Shown here: positions 14,545-64,000 of the stretch, one piece after another
Numbering within the stretch: the stretch's first letter is position 1
How the letters are laid out: each line of letters starts with the position of its first letter
From: Eledone cirrhosa
Lineage: Eukaryota
Assembly: GCA_964016885.1 (NCBI GenBank)
Contig: OZ024742.1
Coordinates: 329,716,001 to 329,780,000 of the forward strand
Length of the DNA: 64,000 nt
Direction of reading: 5' to 3'
Position numbers and translations under genes: made by a program
The notes under the pieces: generated by a model
Seen by the model: only the letters and a program-made list of their open reading frames with translations
The model's database searches: none
What the model was told of the DNA's origin: nothing

Positions 14545-14590
14545 ACACCACTGACGATGTTGCAGATGTGCAACGAAAGATTTATGTAAA
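14545..14590 (+). ncRNA. Hammerhead-like motif in the family-1 pLTR (mirror at ~12086-12129, minus)
   Basis: CUGACGA-U-GUUGCA gaug UGCAAC-GAAA-GAUU-UA. Core and helix II are good, but helix I pairing is weak. Confidence 0.55.
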
Positions 14591-14801
14591 TTATGTAAAC
14601 TATATATATATATATGTGTTTGTGTCTATATTGTATCTGTATTATTTTTGACCGCCGGTCAGTCAATGGCAACATTGAGGACCGAGTAAGTTAGATCGCA
14701 GATATAATAAAAGACAGCGAGAAGCGAAAACCAACCAAACAGTGAGTGTGTTCTGTTATTAATTCTGGCAATATTACGCAAATATGACCCTCCCCAAGTA
14801 T

Positions 14802-14864
<63 letters not shown>

Positions 14865-23220: not shown

Positions 23221-23841
23221 TTTAACTTCCGGTATTCAATGGCGTCTCTCGAAACGTAACAACCACCTGTATCGAACTAAAGAGCACCAGACTACGATCT
23301 CTAACTGGATTGTCGTGGATTATGTGAAAGGCATATAATCGAAATATACACTCCCTTGACCATGAAAATACCGAAGTACATGAATTACTTGACATCCCTG
23401 CGCTGTGCATCTCCAATACTTATAACACTTTTAATGCTTGCACTATCTTTAATGCTTATAATATTTCTCCACACACAGACTATATCAATCATATAAAGAC
23501 TTTGCCACCAGATCTACCAACCTAACACTCTTATTTACCTACCTAAGTGCCTCTACCACACATATCTCTCTGCCACACTATATAAACAAGACGCACATGC
23601 GTGCCACACATATAACATTTGCACTATATAACCACTTATCTTCATGTTGTACTTTAACCTATATCTTTGATTTTTGATTGTACCTATTAATATAAATGTA
23701 ATCTCGAAGTGTGTACTGCCACTCTAAATTCTGTAATGAATGTTGACCCACAATGTTTGAATATGTATCAATGTTTGAATATGTATTGGTATGTCTCTCG
23801 GCTGAAGGGGAGGTCATATAACTGTCCATGCATTAATAAAT

Positions 23842-23888
23842 TGCTCCGAAGAATCCAAACCTCGGTTTGGAGGAAACAGCTGTAAGCA
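23842..23888 (+). ncRNA. Type I hammerhead with U4C core variant in the pLTR (mirror at 19940-19986, minus)
   Basis: UGCU-CCGAAGA-A-UCCAAAC cucg GUUUGGA-G-GAAA-CAGCUG-UA/AGCA. Confidence 0.7.
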
Positions 23889-23928
23889 CAATAATGTTTT
23901 GAGCAGTTCTTTGATTCTTATATTTCAT

Positions 23929-24046
<118 letters not shown>

Positions 24047-27227: not shown

Positions 27228-27277
<50 letters not shown>

Positions 27278-27278
<1 letters not shown>

Positions 27279-30200
27279 TTTTCTTTATTAACCACAAGGG
27301 TTCACATAAAGTAGACATTAAGGACAGTACAGGACAATACAGGACGGTACAAATGGGCATTTCTGCGTGTGAAAAAAACAGAGGTGGAAATAAAATAACA
27401 AAGAAAAATAACAAAGAAAAATTCCCCAATAGGGGGGAGACTTCCAAGGGACATTTGTGGAGAAAGCCCATTAAAAGACCACAGTGGCCCTGACCACCAG
27501 GGCAAGTGCCCTCTCCCAGTTTTCCACCTTTAATTTACAGACACATACTCAGAGAAGGCCCATTCATTCGGGCCATACTTGCTTCTCTCACCCATCTTTC
27601 AACAAAATGCTGGGAAGAGAGCACTTCCCTCTCTACCCTGATTTTCCTTTTCAAATGAAATTTGAAAAAGTTAATCAGGGCATCACCGAAGAGGTAAGTG
27701 CTCGTCTTCAGCCCTTTCAAACGTGTCCACCATACTATCTCTTTCGCCATGGCCACCAGACAGATAAAAACTGCCTGCCCTTCCAGGCTAAAGGAAGGGG
27801 GTGGGGCAATCCTCACGATGGACTCAGCTGATAGCTGGATCCGTCCTACACGTGACAGCAGGTGTTCGACATAAACCCACAAGTCAGCAATGCTCGGACA
27901 CTGGACGAGTGCGTGCAGGACGGTTTCGTCGCCCTGCGCGCATCTCGGACATGCCCGGCTGACGGCACCTCCATGCCTGTAGAGTTTATCCCGAACTGGC
28001 AAAGCTCCTCGGTAGCACTGCCAGGCCAGGGATTTCTGGAAGTTGTCCATAAGCCCCGGCCCGAAAGTCCTTCCGAAGAGATTGGCTAGTTGATTTTCGT
28101 CGACGCCTAGAGTTTCTCCAAGTACCTCGTCACTCTTCCCCTCCACTAATCCCCTATAGAACGCCAAGGTGGAGTTTCCACCGATCACATTGCCCGATTG
28201 GTCGAGGGCTGTGAGCGCCTGAAGACATTCCAGTCTCCAAGCGCTCCCTCTCGGTCTTCGCTTGACCCAGGACTGCAGCTCCGTCAAGGAGACGAGCTGG
28301 GGAAAAACGTGTCTTGCAAACGGCGACCACACCTGATCACCGTCGAGGAAGAGGTGGAGATGTCGTAGCCTGAGCGCGTGTCTGCGCATCATCAGCCACG
28401 GCATGCCCGGCCCTCCACGTAGCGGGTGTTGACAGCAGATGGACCGCCTGACCATCGGAGCGCGTCCCTTCCACAAGAAGCGAAAGAGCAAACGCTCCAG
28501 CTCAGTCAGGCGGGGCTTAGGACAAGGTACGACGGTCAGGCGGTAGTAGATGATGGATGGGGTTGGTGATGCTGGTGTGGATGGTGGCATATCTGTCCTA
28601 ACTTTTTTGTTTCTTAGTTTATTTGTTTCCCTCTGTATTTTGTTTTTGGAGGGGGAAGGAAGAGAATTTTTTCTTTTTTGGTTTCTTTTTTTTTTCCGGA
28701 TATCGTTTCCCACTCCTCGTCGTCACAATCTGTCTCCAGTTGTGATAGGCCGGGGAGTGGAAAATCCTCCACAGCCGTTAGTTTTGGTTGTGGTGTGGTG
28801 GATGGTGTAGGCGCTGGTGCTAGTTCTGAAGCGTTGGGTGGTGGTGGTGTTGGTTTTGCTGGTGGTGGTTGTGGTGTTGGTTTTGCTACTGTTGCTGGGG
28901 TTGTTGCTGTTATAGTTGCTTCTGTTGTTGCTGCTACAGTTGTTGCTGGCATCTCTGCTACTGGTGGTGTTGATGGTTGTGTCACTGGGCTGGGTAGGAG
29001 AGGTGGCCTCAACCTTTTAGCCTGAGGGCAGAAAGCCCTTAGGTGGGTTCCTTCACCACAAACGACACACCTAGGTCTTCTGCCCTCGACAATTACCGTG
29101 AGGTGGCAGCCGTCAGTGAGGTCTATTACCTCTGGGATCTCCTCAATGCTTTTTTGGTCCGCTTGGATCAGGAGCTCCATCCCAGATCCCGACCAGTTTT
29201 CCTGCTTTTCTTTTGCTATTGTTATTATTTTCGTGTTGGCCTCGATGCCGGCGATGACAGCCGCTATTAGCCAGGGAATTTCGATGGCCGGTGGAACGTG
29301 GGTCACCCTGATCTTTACGAGTCTCTGGCCACAATAGCTTGGGACGAGTGTGAAGTCGTCACTTTTTAATGGGGCCATGGAGTGTTCTCTAGCCTCCTCT
29401 GGTGTTTCAAAGAACACATCCACGGTTCCATACTTTTGCCCACGTCTGATGTGGGTTTTTCTTGCCCACACATGTCCCAAAGCTTTTTGGATTTGGGACT
29501 CGGATGCCCGTTCCACTCGGCGCGATTTTACATTTATTGTTCTATACGACACGGTGCACAGGCACCGATGCTCCATTTTATTAGGTGGGGGGGTGAGGCT
29601 GACCCTGTACCCATCTTTCTTTACCATTTGTTTGGCATTTTCTAAATCTTCTTGGGCTACCGTGAACGCTTCGAATTGTTTTGCTACGATGGCGAAACTG
29701 AGGGTCGGTTTTATAATGTCATTGTTGTTGTTGTTGCTATCGTTAATATTAATTTTATTTTCAGTTGTGGTGGTGGTGGCGTCAGTCGTCTTTGGTGGGG
29801 AAGAGTCCATTTTGCTTGATTTCATTTCGACGTCACGAGTTAATTTATTTTTTTCTTCTTTTGTTTCTGTTGTCGCGGTGGTGGTGGTGGTGGTGGTGGT
29901 TGTCGCGGTGGTGGTGGTGGTGGAGGGTTTAACACCTGCAGTCATTGGTAATGGCGGGAAATGAATGTCTGCCTGAGACAAATTTAAAATATTGCCACTG
30001 CTTATATTTTTTTTCGTGTTGGCAAACGTAGTAACATTTACAATGGTGGTGTCGGTGTGAGGTGTTATTTTGTGAGGAAGGCTTTCAGCTACTTCGTGCA
30101 GAGGGGAGTTAGCCATTTTTTTCAAAGAAATTTTTGGATAATAATAAAAGTTAAAATTTTGGGCACAAGGCCCCAATCTTTTTGGGTGTCCTTTTCGGAA

Positions 30201-30324
30201 AACAATGTATGTGTGCTTATAAACAGTTTACAATAAAATTTTCCATAAATGGCAATTTTTAAACAAACGGAAATAACAAACCTTTGCGGAGCTCACGATA
30301 ATACGATTTCCTACGTAGGTCGCC
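27278..30324 (-). mobile_element. Tx1/L1-type non-LTR copy A: type-B 5' UTR/ORF1 joined by internal deletion to the ORF2 3' end
   Basis: ORF1 28614-30176 has CVVCGEGTHLRAFC (CX2CX4HX4C). Junction at ~28550-28556. ORF2 tail has CPRC...HALVQC. AATAAA is followed by (TTA)n at 27228-27277. Confidence 0.88.
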
Positions 30325-30356
<32 letters not shown>

Positions 30357-30619
30357 TTTCTTTATTAACCACAAGGGTTTACATAAAGTAGACATTAAGG
30401 ACAGTGCAGGACAATGCAGGACGGTACAAATGGGCATTTCTGCGTGTAAAAAACAAAAACAGAGGATGTAACAAAAATAACAATGAAAATAACAATGAAA
30501 AATTCCCCAATAGGGGGGGGGGAGACTTCGGAGGGACATTTGTGGAGAAAGCCCAGTAAAAAGCCACAATGACCCTGACCACCAAGGCAAGTGCCCTCTC
30601 CCAGTTTTCCACCTTTAAT

Positions 30620-33600
30620 TTACAGATATATACTCAGAGTAGGCCCATTCACTCGGGCCATTCTTGCTTCTCTCACACATCTTTCAACAAAATGCTGGGA
30701 AGAGCGTACTTCCCTCTCTACTCTGATTTTCCTTTTCAAATGAAATTTGAAAAAGTCAATCAGAGCATCACCGAAGAGGTAAGTGCTCGTCTTCAGCCCT
30801 TTCAAACGTGTCCACCATACTATCTCTTTCGCCATGGCCACCAGACAGATAAAAACTGCCTGCCCTTCCCGGCTAAAGGAGGAAGGCGGGGCATTCCTCA
30901 CGATGGACTCAGATGATAGCCGGATCCGTCCTGAACGCGACAGCAGGTGTTCGACATAAACCCACAAGTCAGCAATTTTCGGACACTGGACGAGTGCGTG
31001 CAGGACGGTTTCGTCGCCCTGCGCGCATCTCGGACATGCCCGGCTGACGGCACCTCCATGCCTGTAGAGTTTATCCCGAACTGGCAAGGCTCCTCGGTAG
31101 CACTGCCAGGCTAGAGATTTCTGGAAATTGTCCATAGGCCCCGGCCCGAAAGTTCTTCCGAAGAGATTGGCTAGTTGATTTTCGTCGACGCCTAGATTTT
31201 CCCCAAGTACGTCGTCGCTCTTACCCTCCACTAATCCTCTATAGAACGCCAAGGTGGAGTTTCCACCGATCACATTGCCCGATTGGTCGAGGGCTGTGAG
31301 CGCCTGAAGACATTCCAGTCTCCAGGCGCTCCCTCTCGGTCTTCGCTTGACACAGGACTGCAGCTCCGTCAAGGAAACGAGCTGGGGAAATACGCGCCTA
31401 GCAAACGGCGACCACACCTCATCACCGTCGAGGAAGAGGTGGAGATGACGTAGCCTGAGCGCGTGCCTGCGCATCATCAGCCACGGCAAGCCCAGCCCTC
31501 CAAGTAGCGGGTGTTGACAACAGATGGACCGCCTGACCATCGGAGCACGTCCCTTCCACAAAAAGCGAAAGAGCAAACGCTCCAGCGCAGTCAGGCGAGG
31601 CTTAGGACAAGGTACGACGGTCAGGCGGTAGGAAGATGACAGACGCGATGTACGCGTTAGCCACCTCCGCTCGACCTTTCAGGGATAGCTTCCTCTCCGC
31701 CCATTTCTGGGTGAGAGAAGCCACCCTGCTCGTCACCTCGTCCCAGTTTTTGTTCGTCTGGAGGTCCGGACCGAACCAGACCCCTAGCAATTTAACCGGT
31801 CCGTCCGTCCAGCGTCCGACGACGCTGTTGGACGGCATGGACCTGCCTCTCCAGGTGCCGAGCTGCAGGCCCACTGACTTTTCCTGGTTGATCATTGCTC
31901 CTGTCACCGCTTCGTATTCTCTTAGTGTAGTGCCGATCGCCTCGATGTGTTTGGCGTTCGACACCACTAAGGTGACATCATCCGCATATGCTGACACGGA
32001 TCTTCCGCATCCTAGTTCGCGCGGGACTCCCCTCAACGTCTCCAGTTTGTGCAGTAATGGCTCGAGAGGCAATACGTACAAGAGGGACGAGAGGGGACAT
32101 CCTTGGCGGACCGAGCGCATGATGTTGAACGGTTCCGACAGGTGACAGTTCACTCTCACCACAGAGCAGATGTCGCTGTGCATGGCAGCGATCCAGCCTC
32201 TGAAGACGGGCCCAAAGCCAGCCGCCCTCAGGACTGCCGCTAGGTAACGATGGTCGACCCTATCGAAAGCATTCGACTGATCTAAATTGATCAAGGACCC
32301 ACCCGTGACAGGTTCCCTAGCTACCCTCTCTACGATGTATCGCATGAGGTGGAGGTTGTCGTGGATGGATCTGTCGGGAATGGCGCATGTCTGCGACTCT
32401 CCCACCAGACCACCAACGACAAGCGCCAACCTCTTTGCTAGCACCTTGGCCAAAATCTTAAACTCTGTGTTTAGCAGAGTTATGGGCCGGAAATTGTCTA
32501 TGTTATCCCCCTTGTTCGGATCCTTTCTCAGCAGTGCCACCGCTCCTCGGCTCACAGAACTGGGAATTCTCCCGTTCTGTTGCCAGTTGCAGTAGACGTC
32601 CACCAAGTGGCCTCCGAACAAGTCTGGCATCTGTACGTAAAGTTCATAGGGCAGATCATCCAAACCAGGCGCTTTGCCCCTTGTGCAGCCAGTCATTGCC
32701 TCCCTTACTTCAGAAGCTGTTATCGGCTTTTCGCAACACTTCAACCTCAGTGGCCGAGAGCCGCGGCAGTCCGTGGAGGTAGACACTAAAGTCCATCCCT
32801 CTACCCGGCCCACCGCTGCCCCCGAACAGCTGAGCGAAGTGTCGCTGAAAAGCTTCACACATTTGCCCGGGATCGAGTAGCATGCGCCCGTCGTGGTCCA
32901 CCAAAGACCGGATCGTGGCTTTGTTGCCACGACGCGCCTCCCCCACTCGCGCCCATTGAACGGCTTTCGTCCCCTCGTGTCTGAGAGCACGCACCCTTGC
33001 TCTGACAACGCAGCCTTCGTGCTTTGCATTGAAGAATTGGTCAAGGGCCAATTTCGCCGCAAGCACGTCGGTCGCAATGCCTGTGCTAAGCGCCTCGTCT
33101 AATTTTCTAACTAGTTCTCCCTCTGCTCTATTTTTCTCTATTGCTAAAGACTTACTAAACCTAATCGATTCTATTCTAATCGCTCTTTTCAGAGCAAACC
33201 ACCACTTGTTGTTGACGATGGCCCCCGTCAACGCCCGCTTAACTAGTTCGCTAATCAGGTCTCTGTAGGCCTTGCGCGCTGGTAAGGACGCGTTTAGCTT
33301 CCAGTAGCCGGGTCCTCGTCTATGAAGCCTATCTAAGTCAAGCACACAGATCACGAATTTGTGGTCCGTGTAGCTGACTATCTTGAATTGTGGACAGCCT
33401 ATGCTAGACTTATCTATTTCCCTACAAAATACTCTATCTAGATATGATCTGGATGACCCTATGCGGTTTGTCCAAGTCCACATTGGCACATTCGGGAAAT
33501 CCAATCGGTACCTGTCAGACAGTTCAAAACGCCTGAGCAGGTTGGTGAGGCTCTTGCACCCTCCACCCCTATCCGCTAATCCCACACAGTCCCAGCGTGC

Positions 33601-34041
33601 ATCTAAGATCTCGTTCCAGTCGCCCACTAACACTAAAGAGCGGGACGTTCCAAGAAAGGTCTCCAGACGCCGGAAGAAATCAGGCCGCCCTGCTCCTGTC
33701 GGGGCATAGACGGCCACTAGCCTGAAAACTTTCCCGTCTCCGCTGGTCAAGTCCAGCACCACCAGCTTACCCTCTGGGTCCAGGAAGATGGCCCGTATGG
33801 CGAGATCCAAACCTCTCCGAAAAAGCACAGCAACTCCTCCACCCGATCCAGGACGGCTGGGAGATGCGTACACATCGTAGCCGCCGAAGATCGGTGCGAA
33901 GGCCCGTGCTTCGGAGATTCTGGTCTCGCTGATGGCCACTACATCTATGTTTAGTGACCTGAGGTCGTTGAGCAGGTGACCCTGCTTCCATGACGACCCC
34001 AAGCCACGCGCATTTATGCTGCCTATTCTGAGTGAGGTCAT
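30620..34041 (-). pseudogene. Tx1 ORF2 (APE-RT-CCHC) of copy B with frameshifts near 32740 and 31632
   Basis: Consecutive ORF-track pieces 32710-34041, 31602-33077 and 30620-31576. Confidence 0.9.
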
Positions 34042-34076
34042 GTTTAAAATAGAGTGGAAAAGATGGGAAAGACCAC

Positions 34077-36209
34077 TTACCGTACTTTTGGTAGAGGAGG
34101 GATGGTTTTTACATCCCTTTTCACTTGATCGTCTGGTGAAGGGACCGTTGAATCGTCCCTTCGGCTGGTCGTCGGCTCTTCTAAGAGAATGTCTGAGTAT
34201 ACTCTTCGATTGATGGTTCCTCCTAAGTCCCTGAAATCACCAACTGCGTTGGGGAATTTCGTTTTAATGTTTGTGTATTGTTTCTGTGCTATTTTTAGCA
34301 GTCTTATGTTAGTTGGCGTTTTGATTGGTGCTGGTATTATGTAGTCCTGTTGTGAAATGTCTGTGTGTTCAATTATGTAAGTCATTAGTTTCTTGTTGTG
34401 TGTATTTATTGCCGTGCATTTGTTTTTCTGGGGGTGGGGTGTGGTTCTGCTATTTTCTTGTCGTTGTTGCTGGGTGTGTGTGTTTTGTTGTTGTGTTTGC
34501 GATGTTGGTGCTTGTGGTGGTGGTGTTGAAGGTGTTGTTGGCGGTGGGGTTGTCGCCGGTGGTGATGGTGGTGCTAGTGTGGGTGGTGATGGTGTTGGTG
34601 TTGTTGCTGCTGTGGGTCTCTTTGCAGTAGACTTTACCCTTTTCTCATTTCTTTCCTCCCTTTTCAAAGGCGACGATGCGCTGCTTCTGCGTTTGTGCCT
34701 TCTTACGACCTTTTGCCATCCCTCTCCCACCTCACACTCCATGTCTGATTCTGTGAGGTCGGGGAGGGGTACCAGCTCCACTCTTTCACTTGTTGTTGTT
34801 GGTGATGTTTGCACTGGAGTCTCTGTTGCAGCTGCATTTGGTATTGCTGTTGTTGTTGTTAATATTTCCACTGCTGCTGCTGTTTTTGATTTCCGTGGAG
34901 TGGGTATGGGTGCCACGGGCCTATCGTTCCTGGTTGCCGCTTGTCCTGTTGCTGGTAGCCGTGGAGCCGGATTCGGAAGGAGGGGGGTTTTCTCCTTTCT
35001 CAGGGTCTTCTCGTTGCAGAAGGCCCTGAGGTGAGTCTTCGATCCACAGCGAAAGCATTTCGGGCGTTTGCCCTCAACACTTATGGGCAGTTGAGTGCCG
35101 TTATCGAAGTCTATCACATCCGGGATAGCTTCGATGCACTCCTGGTTGGTTTGGATTAGCATCTCAATGGAGGAGCCGACCCAATCTTCTCTTACTTTTT
35201 TCTGTACTTGCAGTACAGTTGTTTTGTCCACGATTCCGACGAGGACAGACGCGGCCAGCCAAGAAGGGGTCATTCCGGGGGGGGACGTGGGTCAGTTTGA
35301 CCCTCACAATTTTTTGCCCGCAGTAGGAAGGCACCAACACCATTTCCTCGCTCCTTAGGGTCACTACTGATTGGGCCTTTGCCTCATGGGGTGTGGCAAA
35401 AAGTACTCTACGGTGGCATATTTTTTGCCTCGGGTGATGTGCGTTTTCCGCTGCCACACAGACCCCAAGGCTTTTTGTATTTGGGCCTCTGTGGCTCTTT
35501 CCACCCTACGGGATTTTGTACTTACTGTACGGTACGTGACCGTACAGTGCTCTTGGGTTTCGAAAAAATTTTCCGCTGCCTTGCAGATTGCTCGGTGTCC
35601 GTTCTTTGTCACCATCTTCTTCGCTTCCTCTAATTCCTCATTTGTTATGAGGATTGTTTCCAAGTTTTTCGCAATACCTGCAAATGACATTGGTTTTTCT
35701 CTGCTGTTGTTGTTGTCGTCAGAGCTGCTGGTACTTTTGTTGTTGCTGCAGGTACTACGACTACTGCCTCCGCCGCTGTTGCTGTGGTTGTTGTTGGTGT
35801 TGCTGCTGCTAATGCTGTTGTTATTTATGCTGCTGGTGATGCTGTTGCGGCTGCTACTGTTGTTTTCATTGTCACTGTTGCTGTTGTTATTACGGCTGCT
35901 ACTGCTATTATTCCTGACGTCAGACGAATGAACTGGGTTTTCGTATTTCCCGCACACCTGTTTCGTCGCTGTCGTCGTCGTCGTGGAGAAACCTTGCACG
36001 CTTTGCACGAGACTTTTCTTTTCTTTCGTCACTTGCGAAAGAGAAGGGAGGGAGAGAGACACATTTAAAGAAGGGAGGGAGAGAGACAATCTTCTCTCTG
36101 CTGTAGTGATGATTGAGGAAGAAGAAGACGGAATGAGTGGGAGTGAGGTATGAAATTTCTTTTTCGTAGCCATGTTGTTTTTTTGTTTAAAATGAAATTT
36201 TGGGTACAA
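34077..36209 (-). pseudogene. Tx1 ORF1 type A (Asn/Ser-rich linker, zinc knuckle) with two frameshifts
   Basis: Pieces 35364-36209, 35164-35457 and 34077-35273. Confidence 0.85.
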
Positions 36210-36413
36210 AACCCCAATAACTGTTTATTTAACCCCGAAGGGCCAAATAACGGACAGAAAGACCCCTCTCACGAGGAGGAGGGTGTCTTTATCAACAATT
36301 TGGTTCAAGTTTTAAACAATTTACAATTGTTTTAACGGTTAAAAATTACTATACCTTACAGAGCCGAGCCTCCGTCAACCATGGCATTCAATAATAATAA
36401 TAATAATAATAAT

Positions 36414-39400
36414 GTTTTCTTTATTAACCACAAGGGTTTACATAAAGTAGACATTAAGGACAGTACAGGACAATACAGGACGGTACAAATGGGCATTTCT
36501 GCGTGTAAAAAAAACAGAGATTGAAATAAAATAACAAAGAAAAATTCCCCAATAGGGGGGAGACTTCCGAGGGACATTTGTGGAGAAAGCCCATTAAAAG
36601 ACCACAGTGGCCCTGACCACCAGGGCAAGTGCCCTCTCCCAGTTTTCCACCTTTAATTTACAGACACATACTCAGAGAAGGCCCATTCATTCGGGCCATA
36701 CTTGCTTCTCTCACCCATCTTTCAACAAAATGCTGGGAAGAGAGCACTTCCCTCTCTACCCTGATTTTCCTTTTCAAATGAAATTTGAAAAAGTTAATCA
36801 GGGAATCACCGAAGAGGTAAGTGCTCGTCTTCAGCCCTTTCAAACGTGTCCACCATACTATCTCTTTCGCCATGGCCACCAGACAGATAAAGACTGCCTG
36901 CCCTTCCCGGCTAAAGGAAGGGGGCGGGGAAATCCTGACGATGGACTCAGCTGATAGCTGGATCCGTCCTACACGTGACAGCAGGTGTTCGACATAAACC
37001 CACAAGTCAGCAATGCTCGGACACTGGACGAGTGCGTGCAGGACGGTTTCGTCGCCCTGTGCGCATATCGGACATGCCCGGCTGACGGCAACTCCATGCC
37101 TGTAAAGTTTATCCCGAACTGGCAAAGCACCCCGGTAGCACTGCCAGGCCAGGGATTTCTGGAAGTTGTCCATAGGCCCCGGCCCGAAAGTCCTTCCGAA
37201 GAGATTGGCTAGTTGAATTTCATCGACGCCTAGAGTTTCTCCAAGTACGTCGTCGCTCTTCCCCTCCACTAATCCCCTATAGAACGCCAAGGTGGAGTTT
37301 CCACCGATCACATTGCCCGATTGGTCGAGGGCTGTGAGCGCCTGAAGACATTCCAGTCTCCAAGCGCTCCCTCTCGGTCTTCGCTTGACCCAGGACTGCA
37401 GCTCCGTCAAGGAGACGAGCTGGGGATAAACGTGTCTAGCAAACGGCGACCGCACCTGATCACCGTCGAGGAAGAGGTGGAGATGTCGTAGCCTGAGCGC
37501 GTGTCTGCGCATCATCAGCCACGGCATGCCCAGCCCTCCACGTAGCGGGTGTTGACAGCAGATGGACCGCCTGACCATCGGAGCGCGTCCCTTCCACAAG
37601 AAGCGAAAGAGCAAACGCTCCAGCGCAGTCAGGCGGGGCTTAGGACAAGGTACGACGGTCAGGCGGTAGCAGATGACAGACGCGATGTACGCGTTAGCCA
37701 CCTCCGCTCGACCTTTCAGGGATAGCTTCCTCTCCGCCCATTTCTGGGTGAGAGAAGCCACCCTGCTCGTCACCTCGTCCCAGTTTTTGTTCGTCTGGAG
37801 GTTCGGACCGAACCAGACCCCTAGCAATTTAACCGGTCCGTCTGTCCAGCGTCCGACGATACTGTTGGACGGCATGGACCTGCCTCTCCAGGTTCCGAGC
37901 TGCAGGCCCACTGACTTTTCCTGGTTGATCATTACTCCTGTCACCGCTTCGTATTCTCTTAGTGTAGTGCCGATCGCCTCGATGTGTTTGGCGTTCGACA
38001 CCACTACGGTGACATCGTCCGCATATGCTGACACGGATCTTCCGCATCCTAGTTCGCGCGGGACACCCCTCAACGTATCCAGTTTGTGCAGTAATGGCTC
38101 GAGAGTCAATACATACAAGAGGGACGAGAGGGGACATCCTTGGCGGACCGAGCGCATGATGTTGAACGGTTCCGACAGGTGACAGTTCACTCTCACCACA
38201 GAGCAGATGTCGCTGTGCATGGCAGCGGTCCAGCCTCTGAAGACGGGCCCAAAGCCAGCCGCTCTCAGGACTGCCGCTAGGTAACGATGGTCGACCCTAT
38301 CGAAAGCTTTCGACTGATCTAAATTGATCAAGGACCCACCCGTGCCAGGTTCCCTAGCTACCCTCTCTACGATGTATCGCATGAGGTGGGGGTTGTCGTG
38401 GATGGATCCTCGGCTCACAGATCTGGGAATTCTCCCGTTCTGTTGCCAGTTGCAGTAGACGTCCACCAAGAGGCCTCCTAACAAGTCTGGCATCTGTACG
38501 TAAAGTTCATAGGGCAGATCATCCAAACCAGGCGCTTTGCCCCTTGTGCAGCCAGTCATTGCCTCCCTTACTTCAGAAGCTGTTATCGGCTTTTCGCAAC
38601 ACTTCAACCTCAGTGGCCGAGAGCCGCGGCAGTCCGTGGAGGTAGACACTAAAGTCCATCCCTCTACCCGGCCCACCGCTGCCCCCGAACAGCTGAGCGA
38701 AGTGTCGCTGAAAAGCTTCACACATTTGCCCGGGATCGAGTAGCATGCGCCCGTCGTGGTCCACCAAAGACCGGATCGTGGCTTTGTTGCCACGACGCGC
38801 CTCCCCCACTCGCGCCCATTGAACGGCTTTCGTCCCCTCGTGTCTGAGAGCACGCACCCTTGCTCTGACAACGCAGCCTTCGTGCTTTGCATTGAAGAAT
38901 TGGTCAAGGGCCAATTTCGCCGCAAGCACGTCGGTCGCAATGCCTGTGCTAAGCGCCTCGTCTAATTTTCTAACTAGTTCTCCCTCTGCTCTATTTTTCT
39001 CTATTGCTAAAGACTTACTAAACCTAATCGATTCTATTCTAATCGCTCTTTTCAGAGCAAACCACCACTTGTTGTTGACGATGGCCCCCGTCAACGCCCG
39101 CTTAACTAGTTCGCTAATCAGGTCTCTGTAGGCCTTGCGCGCTGGTAAGGACGCGTTTAGCTTCCAGTAGCCGGGCCCTCGTCTATGAAGCCTATCTAAG
39201 TCAAGCACACAGATCACGAATTTGTGGTCCGTGTAGCTGACTATCTTGAATTGTGGACAGCCTATGCTAGACTTATCTATTTCCCTACAAAATACTCTAT
39301 CTAGATATGATCTGGATGACCCTATGCGGTTTGTCCAAGTCCACATTGGCACATTCGGGAAATCCAATCGGTACCTGTCAGACAGTTCAAAACGCCTGAG

Positions 39401-42249: not shown

Positions 42250-42273
42250 AATAATAATAATAATAATAATAAT

Positions 42274-48074: not shown

Positions 48075-48104
48075 AATAATAAGAATAATAATAATAATAA
48101 TAAT

Positions 48105-53400: not shown

Positions 53401-53402
53401 CA

Positions 53403-56302
53403 TGTCCACATTGACACATTCGGGAAATCCAATCGGTACCTGTCAGACATTTCAAAACGCCTGAGCAGGTTGGTGAGGCTCTTGCACCCTCCTCCCCTAT
53501 CCGCTAATCCCACACAGTCCCAACGTGCATCTAAGATCCCGTTCCAGTCGCCCACTTACACTAAAGAGCGGGACGTTTCAAGAAAGGTCTCCAGACGCCG
53601 GAAGAAATCAGGCCGCCCTGCTCCTGTCGGGGCATAGACGGCCACTAGCCTCAAAGCTTTCCCGTCTCAGCTGGTCACGTCCAGCACCACCAACTTACCT
53701 TCTGGGTCCAGGAGGATGGCCCGTATGGCGAGATCCAAACCTCTCCAAAAATGCACTGCAACTCCTCCCGGACGGCTGGGAGCTTCGTACACATCGTAGC
53801 CGCCGAAGATCGGCGCGAAGGCCCGTGCTTCAGAGATTCTGGTATCGCTGATGGACACTACATCTATGTTTAGTGACCTGAGGTCGTTGAGCAGGTGGAC
53901 CTGCTTCCATGATGACCTCAATCCACGCGCATTTATGCTGCCTATTCTGAGTGAGGTCATGTTGAAATGGAGTGGAAAAGATGGGAAAGACCACTTCCCT
54001 TACTTCTCGTAGAGGAAGGATGGTTTCTCCATCCCTTTTCACTTGATCATCTGGTGAAAGGACCGTTGAATCGTCCCTTCGGCTGGTCGTCAGCTCTTCT
54101 ATGAGTATATCCGAATATACTCTCCGGTTGAGAGTCCCTCCTTGGTCTCTGAAATGACCAACTGCGTTGGGGAATTTCGTTTTAATGTTTGTGTATTGTT
54201 TCTGTGCTATTTTTAGCAGTCTTATGTTAGTTGGCGTTTCGATTGGTGCTGGTATTATGTAGTCGTGCTGTGAAATGTATGTGTGTTCAATTATGTAAGT
54301 CATTAATTTCTTGCTGTGTGTATTTATTGCCGTGCATTTGTTTTTCTGGTTGTGGGATGTGGTTCTGCTATTTTAGTGTCGTTGTTGCTGGGTGTGTGTG
54401 TTTTGTTGTCTTGGTGGTGTTAAAGGTGTTGTTGATGTTGGCTGTGGGGTTGTCGCCGGTGGTGATGGTGTTGGTGGTGTTGCTGCTGTAAGTCTCTTTG
54501 CAGTAGCCTTTACCTTTCTTCATTTCTTTCCTCTCTTTTCGAAGGCGACGATGCGCTGCTTGTGCGTTTGTGCTTTCTCGCGACCCTTTGCCATCTCTCT
54601 CCGACCACTCATTCCATGTCTGATTCTGTGAGGTTGGGGAGGGGTACAAGCTCCACTCTTTCACTTGTTCTTGTTGCTGATGGTTGCAGTGGAGTCTCTG
54701 TTGCAGCTGCAGTTGGTATTACTGTTGTTGTTGTTAATACTTACACTGCTGCTGCTGTTCTTCATTCCGAGGCGTGGGTTTGGGTGCCACGTACCTATCT
54801 CTCGTGCTTGCCGGCTGTCCTTTTGCTGGTAGCAGTGGAACCGGTTTCGGAAGGAGGGGCGTTTTCTCCTTTCTCAGGGTTTTCTCGTTGCAGAAGGCCC
54901 TGAGGTGAGTATTCGACCCACAGCGAAAGCATTTCGGGTGTTGCCCTTAACACTTATGGGTAGTTGAGTGCCGTTATCGAAGTCTATCTCATCCGGGATA
55001 GATTTGATGTACTCCTGGTTGGTTTGGATTAACATCTCAATGGAGGTGCCGACGCAATATTCTCGTACTTTTTCTGTACTTGCAGTACAGTTGTTTTGTC
55101 CTCGATTTCCGACGAGCACAGACGCGGCCAGCCAAGAAGGGGCCATCCCGGGTGGGGGGGGGGGGGGGCGGTCAGTTTGACTCTCACAATTTTTTGCACG
55201 CAGTAGGAGGACACCAACACCATTTCCTCGCTCATTAGGGTCACTAAACATTGAGCCTTTGCTTCCTGGGGTGTGGCAAAAAGCACGTCTACGGTTGCAT
55301 ATTTCTTGCCTCGGGTGATGTGCGTTTTCCGTTGCCACACAGACCCTATGGCTTTTTGTATTTGAGCTTTTGTGGCTCTTTCAACCCTACGGGATTTTGT
55401 ACTTACTATACGGTACGTGACCGTACAGTGCTGTTGGGTTTCGAAAAATGTTTCGGCTGCCTTGCTGATTGCTCGGTGTCAGGTTTTCGTCACCATTTTC
55501 TTTGCTTCCTGTAATTCCTCATTTGTTAACCTGGATGGTTTCCAGGTTCTTTGCGATACCTGCAAATGAGATTGGTTTTTCTTTCTTGTTGTTGTTGTCG
55601 TCAGAGCTGATGTTACTTTCGTTGTTGCTGCAGGTACTACGACTACTGCCGCCGCCTCTGTTGCTGTGGTTGTTGTTGTTGTTGCTGCTGCTAATGCTGT
55701 TGTTGTTTATGCTGCTCATGATGCTGTTGCGGCTGCTACTGTTGTTTTCATTGTCACTGTTGCTGCTGCTGTGGTTATTACGGCTGCTACTGCTATTATT
55801 CATGACGTCAGACGAATGAAATGGCTTTCCGCATTTACCGCACACATCTTTCGTCGTTGTCGTCGTCGTGGAGAAATGTTCCTCGGTTTGCACGTGCTCT
55901 TGGAAACTATTAGAAACTATATCTTTCTATTTCTTTACTGGCGTCGCATGCGAAAGAGAAGGGAGGAACAGAGACACATTTAGAGAAGGGAGGGAGAGAG
56001 ACAATCTTCTATCTGGTGTATTAACGATTGAGGAAGAAGAAGACGGAATGAGTGGGAGTGACTTGTGAACATTATTTTTTGTAGCCATGTTTTTTGGGGT
56101 TTAAAGTGAATATTGGACACAAAACCCCAATAAGCGGTTATTTAACACCGAAGGGCCAAATATCGGGCAGAAAGACTCCTCTCACGAGGAGGAGGGTGTT
56201 TTTGTCTACAATTTGGTTAAAGTTTTAAACAATTTACAATTGTTATAGCATCTAAAATTTACTATACCTTACAGAGCCGAGCTTCCGTCAACAATGGCAT
56301 TC
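53403..56302 (-). mobile_element. Tx1/L1-type copy F (type-A 5' UTR/ORF1 plus start of APE; 3' part missing)
   Basis: ORF2 start at 53960 (MTSLRIGSINARGL) and ORF1 fragments. The 5' end GAATGCCATTGTTGACGG abuts (AAT)n at 56303-56364. Confidence 0.88.
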
Positions 56303-56364
<62 letters not shown>

Positions 56365-57070
56365 GAGCAGGCCCTCAATACGAAGTGGCTGAAAGACCAT
56401 ATTTACATGGAGGAGGCTAGCCCACTGTGTAGGATGGGTGGAGAGAGAGAGGAGACTGTGGCTCACATTGTATCCGAGTGTAAACACCTAGCCCAGACAC
56501 ACTATAAAGGCTGGAGACATGATGGGCAGGGTGATCCACTGGCACCTGTACAAAGTAAACAATTTACCACATTCTGAGAAGTGGTATGAGCATAAGCCAG
56601 AGGCGGTGATAGAAAACGATCAGGTGAAGGTGCTGTGGGAGTTTAGGATACAGACGGACATGAAACTGGAACACAATAGACCTGACGTGGTTGTTTTGGA
56701 CAAGGAAAAAAATCGTGACTGATTGTGGATGTAGCCTGCCCATTTGACACAAGAGTGTAAGAGAAGGAGAGGGAGAATATTAAACAATACCAGGACTTAA
56801 AGTGGGAGGTAAAAAGGATTTGGAACTGCCATGAAGTCAAAGTGGGCCCGATTATCATAGGCGCACTAGATAGTATCTCAAAGAGTTTCCAAGGATGGTT
56901 AAAGAAAATTGGTTCCGCCCCGCTTTTTGGAACACTTCAAAAGGCATGCTTGCTGGGAACAGCAAGAACCCTGCGATACATCCTGAATATCTGAGGCTGG
57001 AGGTAGTGGCTTGATATTCATTTCAACAAACTTTCCAGTTAAATAACATCAATGACTGAGACTCAAAGAA
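56365..57070 (+). mobile_element. 3' fragment of R4/Dong family 2 (CCHC/RLE region plus 3' UTR)
   Basis: Matches 60364-61067. Motifs HNRPDVVVLD and LLGTARTLRYILNI* (stop 56994). (AAT)n on both sides. Confidence 0.88.
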
Positions 57071-57071
57071 C

Positions 57072-57109
<38 letters not shown>

Positions 57110-57120
57110 TAATAATAATA

Positions 57121-57437
57121 AAGAAAAACCAGCAAATGGAAATCTCCAGGAAAAAAAAAACCAAATTTTTGGATAAATGCCTTCACAGAGTCTCATGAGT
57201 TGTTAGCCCAATTTTACAATGAAATAGTTAAGGAGCAGAAAGGATACTAATGGGAACTGCCCATATAATAAGGAAGATTCTGTCAATATAAGTACATCAC
57301 AAGTCTAAACACCTAAAGATGCATGTGTGCGTATGTATGTTCTTTCTTGAACATGGCGCACCTTGTTGTCTCTTGAGATCAATGGTTATGACTTGCTGAT
57401 AACTAGTATGAACATAAAGCAAGGAAAATGCAACTGC

Positions 57438-57438
<1 letters not shown>
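57121..57438 (+). mobile_element. Short internally deleted derivative of R4/Dong family 1 (the 8.7-11.7 kb element)
   Basis: 57121-57240 matches RKTSKWKSPG..NFWINAF.ESHELLAQ.YNEIVKE. 57241-57438 matches ..LMGTAHI.RKILSI* plus the 3' UTR (reverse complement of 8657-8845). (AAT)n on both sides. Confidence 0.85.
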
Positions 57439-57483
<45 letters not shown>

Positions 57484-57485
<2 letters not shown>

Positions 57486-60400
57486 GTCACGTGGAGTGAC
57501 CAAACCACCGGAGACAAGTAATTCACCGGTGGTTATGTAACCATACATTCGCCAATCCTCGATAAGAGTGTTTAAATGTCGAAACTAAACAGTTCGAATA
57601 ACGGTGAAATGGAGACTAGAAGTTCATGTGACAGACTCTCACCCAACAGGTGCTACCTGGCTCAGCAGCAGGGTCCTGGCTATCAACAAAATACTGCTGG
57701 TGTCGGAGGAAGAAGAAGAAGGAAAGGGACCAGAACCAACTGGACGAAATAATTGAATAGAACTGTTATGCAATGATACCTGAAGAGTAACCCCAAGGAG
57801 AAAGGCTATAGGAAACGGATGCATAACTTCTGGAACGAGATTGGTCCATTTAAATTAGATGAACCAAAACTGGCCGGGCAGGCTCCGGTAATAAGAACTA
57901 ATGGGTGGATAAGCGAGCTGGAACTGGAGGAACTGAGCAGAGAGATTAGCTTGGAGATGGAGGGTGGAGTATGCCAGGCAAACGTGCCAGTGGGAAATGA
58001 AGGTGAAGAGGTCGAGAGAACGGAGGAACCACCCCAAACAGACAATGATCTGAATGCTGAGATAAATAATACCTGGTACAGAGATACGACATTGAGGAGA
58101 TGAATGCTGACGGGCTAGGGCAAGATTTGGGAGATATCCTAAACTTAGTGGTAGATGAATTGAACAATGATAGTGGGAGACTTATGAACCTAAGATTTGT
58201 AGACAGGAAAAAGTTAAAAGAAACAACAGCTAAGGGAAACAAAGTCATCCCATACCGTGAGGCGAGGAGCCTTCAACAGTGAAACAATATCCTCAAAGCA
58301 ACAGCAAATACGGTGAGTAAACTACTTGGTATAAAAGCGAGAGGAAACAACAGACAAGAAAGAGCAGAGCCTTGGTGGAAGAAACGACTGAGTGGTCAAA
58401 TCAGGGAAATGAGAAATGACATTGGAAAGCTTGAGTCCCTACTGAATGGGACACTCAAAAACATAGACACTAAAATTAGACTGGAAATAAAGTACACAAC
58501 TAGGAGGAAAAAGCTAAATATTATCATAGAGGAACTGAAGCAACGCATTGTAGCAAAGAGTGCAAAAATCAGACGATACGAGAACAGAGTCAGCCAGTAT
58601 AGACAGAACCGCATGTTCGACAACAACCAGAATATGCTGTTTGGACAGATTGAAGGGAAAGAAAGAGGCAACGACTTGATCCCTGAGGCGGAACAAACTA
58701 AAACATTCTGCAGAGGAATATGGGAGCAGGATGTTAAGCATAATGACCAGGCAGTGTGGATTGAGACAGTACAGAAGGAGATCAGTGAACAGGCACACCA
58801 ACAAACTGATTTGAGTATCACAGTTGAAACTCTTAAGTGGCAGGCCAAAAAACTAACCAACTGGAAATCACCAGGCCCAGATGGTGTGCAGGGGTATTGG
58901 ATTAAAAACATAACATCCCTCCACCCGAAACTGACAACCATGTTCAATGACTGCTTGATGTCAGGTGAGGTACCAGAGTGGTTGACAAAAGGTACCACAG
59001 TTCTGATAATGAAAGATCGAATCAAGGGTAATGATGTTACCAACTATAGACCTATCACATGTCTGTCCGTAATGTGGAAACTGTTGACAAGCTTTATGTC
59101 TGAGGAAATCTACCATCACCTCCACACAAACAACTTGTTACCGGACGAACAGAAAGGATGCCGAAAGAAGTCACGTGGTACAAAGGACCAGTTACTTATT
59201 GATAAGATGTTAATGAGGAATTGCAAGAGGAGACATACTGGTCTTGCCATGGGATGGATAGACTACAAAAAGGCATTTGACATGGTGCCTCATTCTTGGA
59301 TCACCAAAAGCCTGGAGATCTTCAAGGTGGCAGATAACATCAGACGGTTGTTGGGCAAAAGTATGAAGTCCTGGGAAACAGAGTTAACATCAAATGGAGA
59401 ATCCTTGGGAAGCGTGAAGATCAAGAGAGGTATCTTCCAGGGAGATAGTCTGTCCTCTCTGTTGTTTGTCCTTGCCCTGACGCCCCTGACCAGTGTACTG
59501 CGAAAAGTGAGAGCAGGATACAGGTAGGGAAAGGGTGGGCTTACCATCAATCACCTCCTCCTCATGGACGATCTTAAGCTCTTCGGGAAGAGTGAGAAGG
59601 AGTTGGATGTACTTGTTGACACTGTCCGTATTTTCAGAAATGATATATGTATGCAATTTGGTATTAGTAAGTGTGGAGTCATTGTGATGAGGAGGGGTAA
59701 GTTGAGCAGAGGTAACGGAATCCAGATACCAACAGGTGATATGATAAAGGAAATTGACTCTGAGGAAGGATACAAGTATTTGGGTGTTCTGGAGGCTGAT
59801 GGCATCAAGAACAAAAAAAGGAAGGAATTGATAAGAACTGATTACCTTCGGAGAGTAAGGAGTGTGTTAAAATCACATCTGAACAGTAGGAATGCCATAA
59901 GTGCAGTAACTTCCCGAGCTGTGTCTATTATTAGGTACAGTGCGGGAATTCTGAGATGGAATGTTGATGAACAAAAAGAAATGGATAAGAAGACTAGGAA
60001 GCTATTGACTATCTACAATATGTTCCACAAGAGGAGTGATGTCGATAGACTCTACTTAAGGAGATCTGAAGGTGGAAGAGGTCTTATCATTATAGAGGAC
60101 TGTGTTCAGATGGAGAAAACAACCTACACAAATACGTGACTGATAGTAAGGAGCCAATGCTCAGAACTGTACTGAAGGAGGAGGCAATAGGCCAGAGGAT
60201 GTCCAAGGAGGAAATAACATCAAGGAGAAAGAGCAGCCTCCAGGAAAAATCCCTTCATAGTACCTTCTTTGAGAAAACTGAATTTAGAGATCCACAGACA
60301 TGGAAATAGTTTAAAAGAGGAGACCTTAAAAAGGCTACAGAAGGAATGTTAATGGCTGCGCAGGAGCAAGCCCTCAAAACGAAGTGGTTGAAACACCACA

Positions 60401-61067
60401 TTTACAAGGAGGAGGCTAGCCCACTGTGCAGGATCTGTGGAGAGAGAGCGGAGACTGTGGCTCACATTGTATCCGGGTGTAAACACCTAGCCCAGACTCA
60501 CTATAAGGGCTGGAGACATGATGTGATGGGCAGGGTGATCCACTGGCACCTATGCAAAGTAAACAATTTACCACATTCTGAGAAGAGGTATGAGCATAAG
60601 CCAGAGGCGGTGATAGAAAACGATGAGGTGAAGGTGCTGTAGGATTTTAGGATACAGACGGACAAGAAACTGCAACACAATAGACCTGACCTGGTGGTTT
60701 TGGACAAAGAAAAAGGATTGCGCCTGATTGTGGATGGGGCCTGCCCATTCGACACGAGAGTGCAAGAGAAGGAGAGGGAGAAAATTAACCGATACCAGGA
60801 CTTAAAGTAGGAGGTAAAAAGGATTTGGAACTGCCATGAAGTCAAAGTGATCCCGATTAAGCGCACTAGGGACTATCTCAAAAAGTTTCCAGGGATGGTG
60901 AAAGAAAATTGGCCCCTTCACGGTTTTTGGAACGCTCAAAAGGCATGCTTGCTGGGAACAGCAAGAACCCTCCGAAACGTCCTGAATATCTGAGGCTGCA
61001 GGTGGTGGCTTGATATTTATTTCAACAAACTTTCCCGTTAACTAACATCAATGACTGAGACTCTAAA
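57484..61067 (+). mobile_element. R4/Dong family 2, apparently full length, with multiple stops and frameshifts
   Basis: N-terminal GYRKRM..W...LAGQ..WISELELE, then KSPGPDG, NYRPITCL, WIDYKKAFD, GIFQGDSLS, LMDD, YKYLG, CRIC..HIVSGC, RHD, RPD. Final stop at 60993. (AAT)n at 57439-57483 and 61068-61147. Confidence 0.9.
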
Positions 61068-61147
<80 letters not shown>

Positions 61148-61149
<2 letters not shown>

Positions 61150-61502
61150 TGGATTGTGGATGTGGCTTGGCCATACGACACGAGAGTGCAAGAGAAGGAG
61201 AGGGAGAAAATTAACCGATACCAGGACTTAAAGTGGGAGGTACAAAGGATTTGGAATTGCCATGATGTCAAAGTCATCCCGATTGTCATAGGCGCACTAG
61301 GGACTATCTCAAAAAGTTTCCAGGGATGGTTAAAGAAAATTGGCCCCTTCACGCTTTTTGGAACGCTTCAAAAGTCATGCTTGCTGGGAACAGCAAGAAC
61401 CCTCCGATACGTCCTGAATATCTGAGGCTGCAGTTAGTTGCTTGATATTCATTTCAACAAACTTTCCAGTTAACTCACATCAATGACTGAGACTCAAAGA
61501 GT
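61148..61502 (+). mobile_element. Short 3' fragment of R4/Dong family 2
   Basis: WIVDVAWPYD..EKINRYQDL..IVIGALG..LLGTARTLRYVLNI* plus 3' UTR. Confidence 0.88.
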
Positions 61503-61525
61503 AATAACAACAATAATAATAATAA

Positions 61526-64000
61526 GGATTTCTTTATTGGCCACAAGGGCTGATATCAAGAAAAACATCACAGACAGAACAGGACGGTACGATGTGGTTT
61601 TTGTGCGTGTAAATATTTTTATTATTTATATAAGAAAAGAAAAGACATAAAACATATATATATATATATATATATAAACAATAAAATGAAAATTGAAACA
61701 ATGAAAAATTCCCCAATAGGGGGGAAACCTCCGAGGGTTACTCGTGGCAAAACCAACACAAAAGACTACAGCCACCCTGACTACCAGGGCAAGCGCCCTC
61801 TCTCAATTTTTCCATCTCAGACCATTCTCGCTACTTTTACCCACCTTTCAACAAACTTGCTAGAAAGCAGCACTTGCCTCTCCACCCTGATTTTCCTCTT
61901 CAAGTGAAACTTGAAAAAGTTAATCAGGGATTCGCCGAATAGGAAAGTGTTTGTCTTTAATAATTTTAACCTTGTCCACCACACAATCTTTTTCGCCATG
62001 GCCACCAGGCAGATGAAAACCGCCTGCCCTTCCTCCTCAAAGGAAGACGGCGAGACCATCTGCACAATGGACTCAGTCGACAACCGGATTAGTCCCACAC
62101 GTGATAGCAACTGTTCGACATAGCTCCACAAGTCAGCAATGCTCGGGCACTGAACGAGTGCGTGCACAACGGTTTCGTCGCTATGCGCGCATCTCGGACA
62201 AGATCGGCTGACGGCACTTCCGTGCCTGTAGAGCTTATCTCGAACCGGCAGCGCTCCCCGGTAGCACTGCCAGGCCAGGGATTTTTGGAAGTTATCCATA
62301 GGCCCCAGGCTGAAAGTTCTCCGGAAGAGGGCAAGCAGCTGATCTTCTTCGACGCCCAGGATCTCTCCGAGAACGTCGTCGCTCTTCCCCTCCACCAGTC
62401 CTGTATAGAACGCCGAGGTGGATGTTCCACCGATACTGGTGTCCAACTGGGAGAGGGCAGTGAGCGCCTGGAGACATTCCAGTTTCCAAGCGCTATCCCT
62501 CGGTCCTTTTCTGACCAGGACTGCAGCTCCGTCAAGGAGACGAGCTGTGAGAAAATGTGCCTGGCGAACGGCGACCACACCCGTTCACAATCAAGGAAGC
62601 ACCTGATTTATCGCAGCCTCAGTGCATGTTTGCGCATCATCAGCCATGGCATGCCCAGTCCTCCACGCAACGGATGTTGACAGCAGATGGATCGTCTGAC
62701 CATGGGAGCGCGTGCCTTCCACAAAAAGCGGAAGAGGAGGCGCTCCACTTTGGTGAGAGTTGGGCTGGAGCAAGGGACGACGGTGAGGCAGTAGCAGATG
62801 ACGGATGCGATGTACACATTCGCCACTTCCGCCCGGCCTTTCAGGAACAGCTTCCTCTCAGCCCATTTCTGGGTGAGGGAGGCCACACTGCTCGTCACCT
62901 CGTTCCAGTTTTTCTCCATCTGGAGGTCCGGTCCGAACGAGACCCCAAGCTATTCAACCGGTCCGTCCGACCATCGCCCCACGACGCTGTCGGACGGCAT
63001 GGACTTGCCTCTCCAGGTGCCTAGCTTCAAGCCCACCGACTTTTCCTGGTTTATCTTTGCTCTTGTCACCGTTTCGTATTCCTTGAGAGCGGTGCCGAGC
63101 ATCTGGGCGTGTCTGGTGCTCGACACCACCACGGTGACGTCGTCAGCGTAAGCCGACTCAGATTTCCCGCATCCTAGTTCGCATGGGACGCCCCTCATCA
63201 CCCCCAGTTTGTTCAGTAACGGCTCGAGAGCCAATACGTACAAGAGGGACGAGAGGGGACAACCCTGGCGGACTGAGCGCATGATGCTGAACGGCTGCGA
63301 CAGGTGACCATTCACCCTCACAACTGAGCAGATGTCGCTGTACATTGCTGCGATGCAACGCCTGAAAACTGGCCCGAAACCGGCTGCCTCGAGGACCGCC
63401 GCCAGTTACCGATGGTCGACCCTATCGAATGCTTTGGATTGATCCAAGTTGATCAGGGCCCCACCCTTGCCAGGTTCCTTAACCACCCTCTCTATGATGT
63501 ATCGCATGAGGTGGAGGTTGTCGTGTATTGATCTGTCCGGGATGGCGCATGTCTGCGCCTCTCCCACCAGACCCTTGACGACAAGCGCCAACCTCGTTGC
63601 TAACACCTTGGACAAAATCTTGAACTCTGCGTTTAGCAGAGTTATGACCTGAAATTATCAATAACATCCCCCTTGTTCGGGTCTTTTCTCAGCAGCGCCA
63701 CTGCTCCCCGGCTCACAAAACTGGGAATGTTCCCGTTCTGCTGCCAGTTGCAGTAGATGTCTGCCAAGAGGTCACCGAACAAGTCTGGCATAAATGCATA
63801 AAGCTCGTATGGCAGACCATCTAAATCTGGCGATTTACCTCTTGTGCAGTTAGCCATCGCTTCCTGTATTTCACCGGCTGTTATTGGCTTTTTGCAACAC
63901 TGTGCTGCGGTCGTCGAGAGCCGAGGCAGTCCGTCGAGGTATGCACTGAAGTCCATGTCCCGATCCGGCCCGCCGCCGCTCCCGAACAGTTCAGCAAAGT
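61526..64000 (-). mobile_element. Tx1/L1-type copy G (more diverged subfamily), runs off the window
   Basis: RT fragments (LDQSKAFD, RQGCPLS, YADD), CPRC..HALVQC, and AATAAA followed by a short (TTA)n tail at 61503-61525. Confidence 0.9.

Follow-up and report, generated by a model that had tools for sequence, protein, structure and literature searches.

Tx1-type and Dong-type retrotransposons in a chain of opposite polarity on an AAT microsatellite of Eledone cirrhosa

How do retrotransposons of two unrelated groups come to lie end to end, on opposite strands, with only (AAT)n microsatellite between them? The question is raised by a locus in the octopod Eledone cirrhosa, within a 64,000-bp stretch (the window; C3:329,716,001–329,780,000, contig OZ024742.1) of the 378.9-Mb C3 in a 3.0-Gb assembly. 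Its minus strand carries Tx1-type long interspersed elements (LINEs) encoding an apurinic/apyrimidinic endonuclease (APE), and its plus strand R4-type LINEs of the Dong group encoding a restriction-like endonuclease (RLE). The chain is very probably a nest of these two target-specific groups that grew by insertion into earlier AAT tracts, together with duplication and deletion, and is likely selfish.

Composition of the chain

As a first-pass annotation had described, ten (AAT)n tracts and eleven element segments (seven Tx1-type on the minus strand, four Dong-type on the plus strand) followed one another in the window without intervening host DNA. The chain is even longer: it extends past the window end to window-coordinate 82734 and comprises 55,505 bp with 15 segments (nine Tx1, six Dong) and 14 tracts. 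Element homology and tracts made up 99.5% of it; the uncovered 235 bp were also element sequence (part of the open reading frame (ORF) of Dong2 and an inverted Dong piece), and there is no host DNA inside the chain. The fusion of segments E and F, annotated as the only junction lacking a tract, is alone in this within the window, but segments L and M form a second such junction beyond it. Tracts of (AAT)≥4 occurred only 11 times on one strand in 60 evenly spaced 10-kb stretches (600 kb), approximately 4 × 10⁻⁴ per 20-bp junction, and ten tracts at ten junctions are therefore far beyond chance. The members are listed in window coordinates.

27230–27277, plus: (AAT)16, left boundary tract, host DNA on its left
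27278–30324, minus: segment A, Tx1 family TxA, both ends intact, internal deletion of approximately 2.85 kb, 98% identical to an intact copy elsewhere
30325–30354, plus: (AAT)10 junction
30355–36389, minus: segment B, Tx1 family TxB, full-length, ORF2 spread over three frames
36390–36413, plus: (AAT)8 junction
36414–42249, minus: segment C, B/D hybrid copy, identical to D towards its 3' end and to B (99.9%) towards its 5' end
42250–42273, plus: (AAT)8 junction, duplicate of the tract at 36390
42274–48074, minus: segment D, TxB-type Tx1, full-length, 172-bp deletion common to C and D, ORF2 broken
48075–48104, plus: interrupted (AAT)10 junction
48105–53398, minus: segment E, TxA without its first 532 nt, fused to F with no tract between
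53401–56302, minus: segment F, 5' 2.9 kb of TxB, fused to E
56303–56362, plus: (AAT)20 junction, head to head, Tx1 5' end against a Dong truncation point
56363–57071, plus: segment G, 5'-truncated Dong1 (R4 type) with zinc knuckle and RLE region
57072–57119: (AAT)n tract between G and H
57121–57437, plus: segment H, Dong2 (second R4-type family), 5'-truncated, internal deletion
from 57438: (AAT)15 tract between H and I
57483–61067, plus: segment I, Dong1, at least approximately 1 kb of the 5' untranslated region (UTR) missing, stops in the ORF
from 61068: (AAT)27 tract between I and J
61149–61502, plus: segment J, 5'-truncated Dong1
61503–61523, plus: short (AAT)n (four units at 61503 and at 61512), common tail of Dong J and Tx1 K, tail to tail
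61524–67416 (past the window end), minus: segment K, TxK, third Tx1 family, full-length, approximately 80% identical to TxB
67462–70371, beyond the window: segment L, Dong1
70397–73180, beyond the window: segment M, TxB, truncated
73211–76898, beyond the window: segment N, Dong2
76937–82707, beyond the window: segment O, TxA

The minus-strand segments contained the Pfam domains Exo_endo_phos (APE), RVT_1 (reverse transcriptase, RT) and zf-RVT. None of the nine Tx1 members of the chain has an undamaged ORF2, which is frameshifted, stopped or truncated in each; intact two-ORF TxB and TxA copies are present elsewhere in the genome, and a natural TxB-type copy (L216) retains both ORF1 and ORF2. 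The two-ORF architecture, with an N-terminal APE, an RT and a C-terminal zinc-binding region in ORF2, is that of the Tx1 clade (L1 group), and the best PDB match was human L1 ORF2p (E 2e-52). In a tree built without reference Tx1, Kibi, Koshi or L1 sequences, the RT grouped (97/97 support) with proteins of fish, turtle and lancelet and with one from alligator that bears the name TX1 (37–44% identity); its closest named protein relative was from Argonauta hians (73%). Of the three Tx1 types in the chain, TxA and TxB were approximately 94–95% identical in their ORF2 and 3' halves and unrelated in the 5' UTR and ORF1 start (L290 versus L216), which points to a 5'-end swap between subfamilies. All 40 scored TxA 5' ends were 100% identical, so this type is very young. 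An AATAAA motif stands just upstream of the Tx1 tail, and it is therefore plausible that transcripts end with a few units of AUU.

Two RLE families make up the plus-strand segments in the window: Dong1 (G, I, J) and Dong2 (H). As expected of R4/Dong, they have one ORF with an RT followed by a CCHC knuckle and a PD-(D/E)xK RLE, and no APE. We take the motifs CRVC..H..S.C and RPD..D..K, downstream of the RT in the Dong protein P0001, to be the knuckle and the RLE, respectively. PDB matches of the Dong protein were R2 proteins only, and none of the 120 RT homologues listed, of 173, was named Dong or R4. The Dong element of Bombyx mori carries a hepatitis delta virus-like ribozyme at its 5' end; here, no such ribozyme was matched by Rfam on four loci or by a home-made descriptor, which had no positive control, on seven stretches. 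Dong1 and Dong2, otherwise distinct, have a 5' head of approximately 100 nt in common (L303:410–520, L306, L298). Dong 5' UTRs were at least 1 kb long and of low complexity, with internal duplications, and the Dong2 UTR contained a fixed SINE-like fragment in the four copies viewed.

Polarity at target sites across the genome

Since an element could itself produce its 3' tail, 5' junctions were used as the test of polarity. Among top-scoring young copies, (ATT)n preceded the 5' end in 30/30 TxB and 30/30 TxA copies, i.e. all 60 full-length Tx1 5' ends showed the target specificity of the Tx1 clade. The 5' flanks terminated in ATT in 59 of these 60, and 3' flanks started with ATT. Dong1 5' ends were preceded by (AAT)n in 29/30 cases, in keeping with the (TAA)n target of R4/Dong, in some cases separated from it by a short (AAG)n or by a few further bases. 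Two query sets were left out of these counts: Dong2, for which the query started inside the element (28/30 loci with element upstream), and another set, for which 29/30 loci showed Dong 5' UTR.

A second count took in every tract of at least four units in loci L001–L288 and element matches of at least 80% identity. Polarity was concordant at 353 of 354 element ends at tracts (Tx1 5', 83/83; Tx1 3', 54/54; Dong 5', 104/105, mostly truncation points; Dong 3', 112/112), and 306 tract sides had no neighbour at that identity. Throughout the genome, Tx1 copies were arranged as (ATT)n-element-(ATT)n and Dong copies as (AAT)n-element-(AAT)n, whether the tract belonged to the host or to the tail of the other group. 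Opposite polarity is thus a genome-wide targeting rule. The proposal first made from the window, that APE and RLE elements have converged on a common microsatellite with each group on a different strand, is supported. Among the loci scored, dispersed copies had neither random 5' flanks nor, apart from one end, mixed polarity.

An abundant short interspersed element (SINE) of approximately 190 bp is a likely passenger of Tx1. Its 3' end (CCTTGTGCC.AA.GTAGAAAC) is near that of Tx1 (CCTTGTGG..AATAAAGAAA.C), and its 3' flank contained at least two ATT units in 50 of 65 copies and AAT in none of the 65. Target duplications of 9–22 bp, starting with ATTAT, were found in 16 of 20 full-length copies (mean of the mismatched-pair control, 2.9). 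Together with the flanks described above, these duplications bear out the earlier claim that the target persists on both sides of each insertion. If Tx1 moves the SINE, each insertion would copy approximately five repeat units to both sides. The element contains motifs that are presumably an A-box and a B-box-like sequence. This tRNA-type SINE, with an (ATT)n tail in Tx1 polarity, was observed at L217–L221, L049, L128, L275, L290 and many unselected stretches, as a third chain member elsewhere.

Several points weigh against the nest as described. Target duplications of the LINEs themselves are unreadable inside pure tracts, and the link from SINE to Tx1 would follow from their common 3' end. 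Loci L001–L288 were chosen by similarity to element ends, with this chain included and split tracts sometimes counted twice, and the 5' flank sets likewise included loci of this chain and tandem duplicates. The one Dong1 5' end without a tract (L113) was fused into a Tx1 element, and an inverted Dong piece (L066) was discordant. An empty site was not found: contigs from three read sets (one sample and one related organism) covered the left flank to 27213 and broke at the tract, with no empty allele among them, and they neither confirm nor refute the left junction. Finally, one relic adjoining the last tract breaks the polarity and was dropped from the 354-end count by the 80% identity filter:

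82752–84335 (L010:8752–10000, L011:1–335), plus: old Tx1-like relic (ORF1 end and APE), 48–59% protein identity

Its nearest copy elsewhere was 73% identical. The polarity annotated as strict therefore holds at tracts in the loci scored, apart from one discordant end, and fails at the far edge of the chain. The left flank showed no tblastn match to three element proteins and no match to this right-edge relic, and the splitting of an older element was not demonstrable.

Growth, duplication and loss of chain members

Target-primed reverse transcription starts with a nick in the strand complementary to the RNA, and this strand then primes synthesis, so the Tx1 APE protein would use the (AAT)n strand and the Dong RLE protein the (TTA)n strand. 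The Tx1 nick would probably fall at a T/A step, since 5' flanks end and 3' flanks begin with ATT. A second cut, staggered by approximately 15–18 bp as measured on the SINE with the Tx1-like 3' end, would leave a tract on both sides; one target would thereby become two, and longer chains would gain insertions faster. Similar adjacent copies may then recombine unequally (C) or be deleted (A, H, E/F, L/M). The insertion strand may be fixed by the nuclease or by pairing of the transcribed repeat tail; in SART1/TRAS1, the outcome depends mainly on the endonuclease, with a contribution from short RNA–target pairing (PMC7265360).

Identity of chain members to young copies spanned approximately 80% to 98.5% (88–90% for E and F), which indicates that they arrived in layers, and the alternation of families along the chain also fits successive arrivals. 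An alternative is that head-to-tail runs arose mainly in one step each, through template jumping or through read-through (3' transduction). Many Tx1 5' ends are indeed preceded by a Tx1 3' end (TxB, 18/30). However, neighbours are unlike in family and age, opposite-strand Tx1/Dong joins are impossible from one complementary DNA, and near-identical neighbours have internal switch points typical of DNA recombination, and we regard this origin as very improbable.

Insertion is not the only process, and the indefinite growth originally envisaged stands only in part: insertions are layered, but unit C arose by DNA-level duplication or misassembly, and deletions, seen in A, H, C/D, E/F and L/M, removed tracts and element parts. 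Unit C is the probable product of a 5.86-kb tandem duplication. It showed zero differences from D over approximately 2.3 kb of its 3' part, the 172-bp deletion included, and three substitutions and one 3-bp indel relative to B over approximately 3.8 kb on its 5' side; the (AAT)8 tract occurs twice, and the switch between B and D lies at approximately 38480–38737. Such a pattern points to an unequal exchange that involved D and B, or else to a join made in the assembly, which is a possible though less likely source of this unit. Similar tandem units occurred at C28 (0 and 5 differences over 6,048 bp, zero for u2–u3), at C3:57 Mb (identical over approximately 5.3 kb, including an opposite-strand Dong) and at C2:43 Mb; these were selected for closeness, which inflates their frequency. 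The stretches without differences (C28, C3:57 Mb, C/D), together with a left junction spanned by no read-set contig, could suggest that the chain or its near-identical units are an assembly artefact. Against this, most segments differ by 5–20% and carry private deletions, B and C differ at four places, and hundreds of separate loci follow the same rule of polarity; an artefact could explain unit C at most, and as a general explanation it has very little probability. Growth by insertion is self-reinforcing yet countered by deletion. Segment L ends at 70345–70397 (L009:6330–6400) in a 25-bp inverted self-copy, followed by the truncated TxB; the Dong1 truncations at L038, L060 and L069 begin close to this same point.

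The chain is one of many. Candidate matches numbered at least 437 for the TxB 5' end, 2027 for the TxA 5' end, 1345 for the Dong 5' head and 448 for the Dong2 5' region, and element matches were dispersed over many contigs. The upstream neighbour was another Tx1 or Dong at 21/30 TxB, 27/30 TxA and 25/30 Dong1 loci. Six other clusters, picked for closely spaced matches, were built alike with the same polarity, and five of them mixed families or groups (the C2 cluster contained TxB and TxA only). Four of the 60 unselected 10-kb stretches contained a young copy, and three contained mixed Tx1/Dong runs (L202, L275, L282). In these 600 kb, matches to the families covered 34.6 kb, and Tx1 or Dong adjoined 9/14 tracts of at least eight units and 3/14 shorter ones. 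The locus is thus ordinary, one of many mixed chains on many chromosomes. A preference for element tails over host tracts was considered and is not shown, with neighbour rates of 70–90% against a baseline of 9/14 long tracts. Relatives on metagenome contigs (80 loci, 24–41% identical; 4/80 with any four-unit tract) were uninformative on target age.

The idea of a special telomere-array-like system is not supported by these data. The interstitial position was borne out by mapping: the locus lies at 329.7 Mb of C3, 49 Mb from the contig end, and the chain contains no TTAGGG dimer. That the chain is kept as host-useful telomere-like, centromeric or PIWI-interacting RNA (piRNA)-producing chromatin is accordingly improbable. 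In its favour, copies stand head to head and tail to tail, an arrangement that could yield double-stranded transcripts, and the chain samples at least five families. Apart from its position, similar chains on many chromosomes, decay of copies through deletion and frameshift, and the 0.7–4% at which 15-member chains are expected among thousands of copies (crude geometric model, neighbour probability 0.7–0.8) argue against it. A host function is unsupported, and the locus likely reflects selfish accumulation in a harmless target.

Outside the chain, the window contained a solo Dong2 that obeys the chain polarity, and three other repeats:

8655–11678, minus: solo Dong2, 957-aa open frame (RT-CCHC-RLE), flanked at either end by (TAA)n as read along the element
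2546–4598: 478-bp unit repeated 4.2 times at 98–99% identity, with an inverted copy at 4535–5318
11865–14809: 570-bp inverted repeats (99.3%) around a 499-aa RT-like frame (12770–14266), probably a Penelope-like element
19897–23931: 707-bp perfect inverted repeats around a 482-aa frame (21776–23221, minus) with no Pfam match, built much like the element at 11865–14809

Comparison with known systems

Known Dong elements (B. mori Dong, DongAg, DongBg) occupy TAA microsatellites in silkworm, mosquito and snail (PMC3812793). The families described here are alike in target, but two of them share it with Tx1 and form long mixed chains. Dong is listed among APE elements in PMC3812793 but in the RLE R4 lineage in PMC3774820 and PMC4640811, and our Dong protein supports the latter placement. 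Among the recently active LINE groups of O. vulgaris, Dong-R4 is the largest, and L1-Tx1 is listed as well (PMC13282606, Table 1); the passages seen of that paper do not mention targets or nesting of either.

Microsatellite targets within Tx1 include (TC)n for Kibi, (TTC)n for Koshi and (TTCC)n/(TTTC)n for crocodilian families (PMC4494074). Ours are likewise two-ORF APE-RT LINEs on a microsatellite, but their target, read along the element, is (ATT)n, which is complementary to that of Dong. Compound junction tracts with (TTC)n beside (ATT)n, resembling the Koshi target, were observed at L035, L046, L216, L108, L115, L302 and L307. In crocodilians, Tx1-Mar mobilises SINEU-3, and tandem copies sandwich a target duplication through sequential insertion (PMC4494074); here, the counterpart is a SINE of tRNA type whose 3' end resembles that of Tx1 and whose target is ATTAT. 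An octopus CORE SINE, OR2, is mentioned in PMC4758252.

Keno (Tx1, APE) and Utopia (RLE) evolved the same U2 small nuclear RNA gene target in parallel (PMC4640811). Their 3' flanks are identical, hence their polarity is the same, and the gene is low-copy, whereas the octopod elements use opposite strands of an abundant microsatellite and nest in one another. SART1 and TRAS1 are both APE elements of the R1 clade. They insert in opposite directions into silkworm (TTAGG)n (PMC7265360) and are confined to telomeres, unlike the dispersed, interstitial APE and RLE pair described here; the location at chromosome ends that marks telomeric arrays (HeT-A/TART, SART/TRAS) is likewise absent. The literature searched gave no account of an (ATT)n-targeting Tx1 that shares the Dong target, of mixed Tx1/Dong chains or of the present SINE with its Tx1 3' end; Repbase, Dfam and supplements beyond that search may hold one for the first two. 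The ingredients have precedents, and the combination appears to be unreported.

If element tails supply most long (AAT)n tracts (compare the 9/14 above), two LINE clades and a SINE might build each other's niche in octopods, with thousands of bidirectional chains acting as dispersed, self-updating dual-strand piRNA traps for their own families; we consider this extension speculative and rather unlikely. A natural pair of APE and RLE endonucleases with different folds appears to act on the two opposite strands of a target that could not be simpler, and with intact Tx1 copies available, it becomes testable whether nuclease or RNA–DNA pairing sets the polarity. The Tx1 clade gains an (ATT)n target and an abundant octopod SINE a likely LINE partner. 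Such chains are prone to both real and false tandem duplication in assemblies, and they may explain the clustered LINE DNA of large octopod genomes (34.6 of 600 kb sampled).

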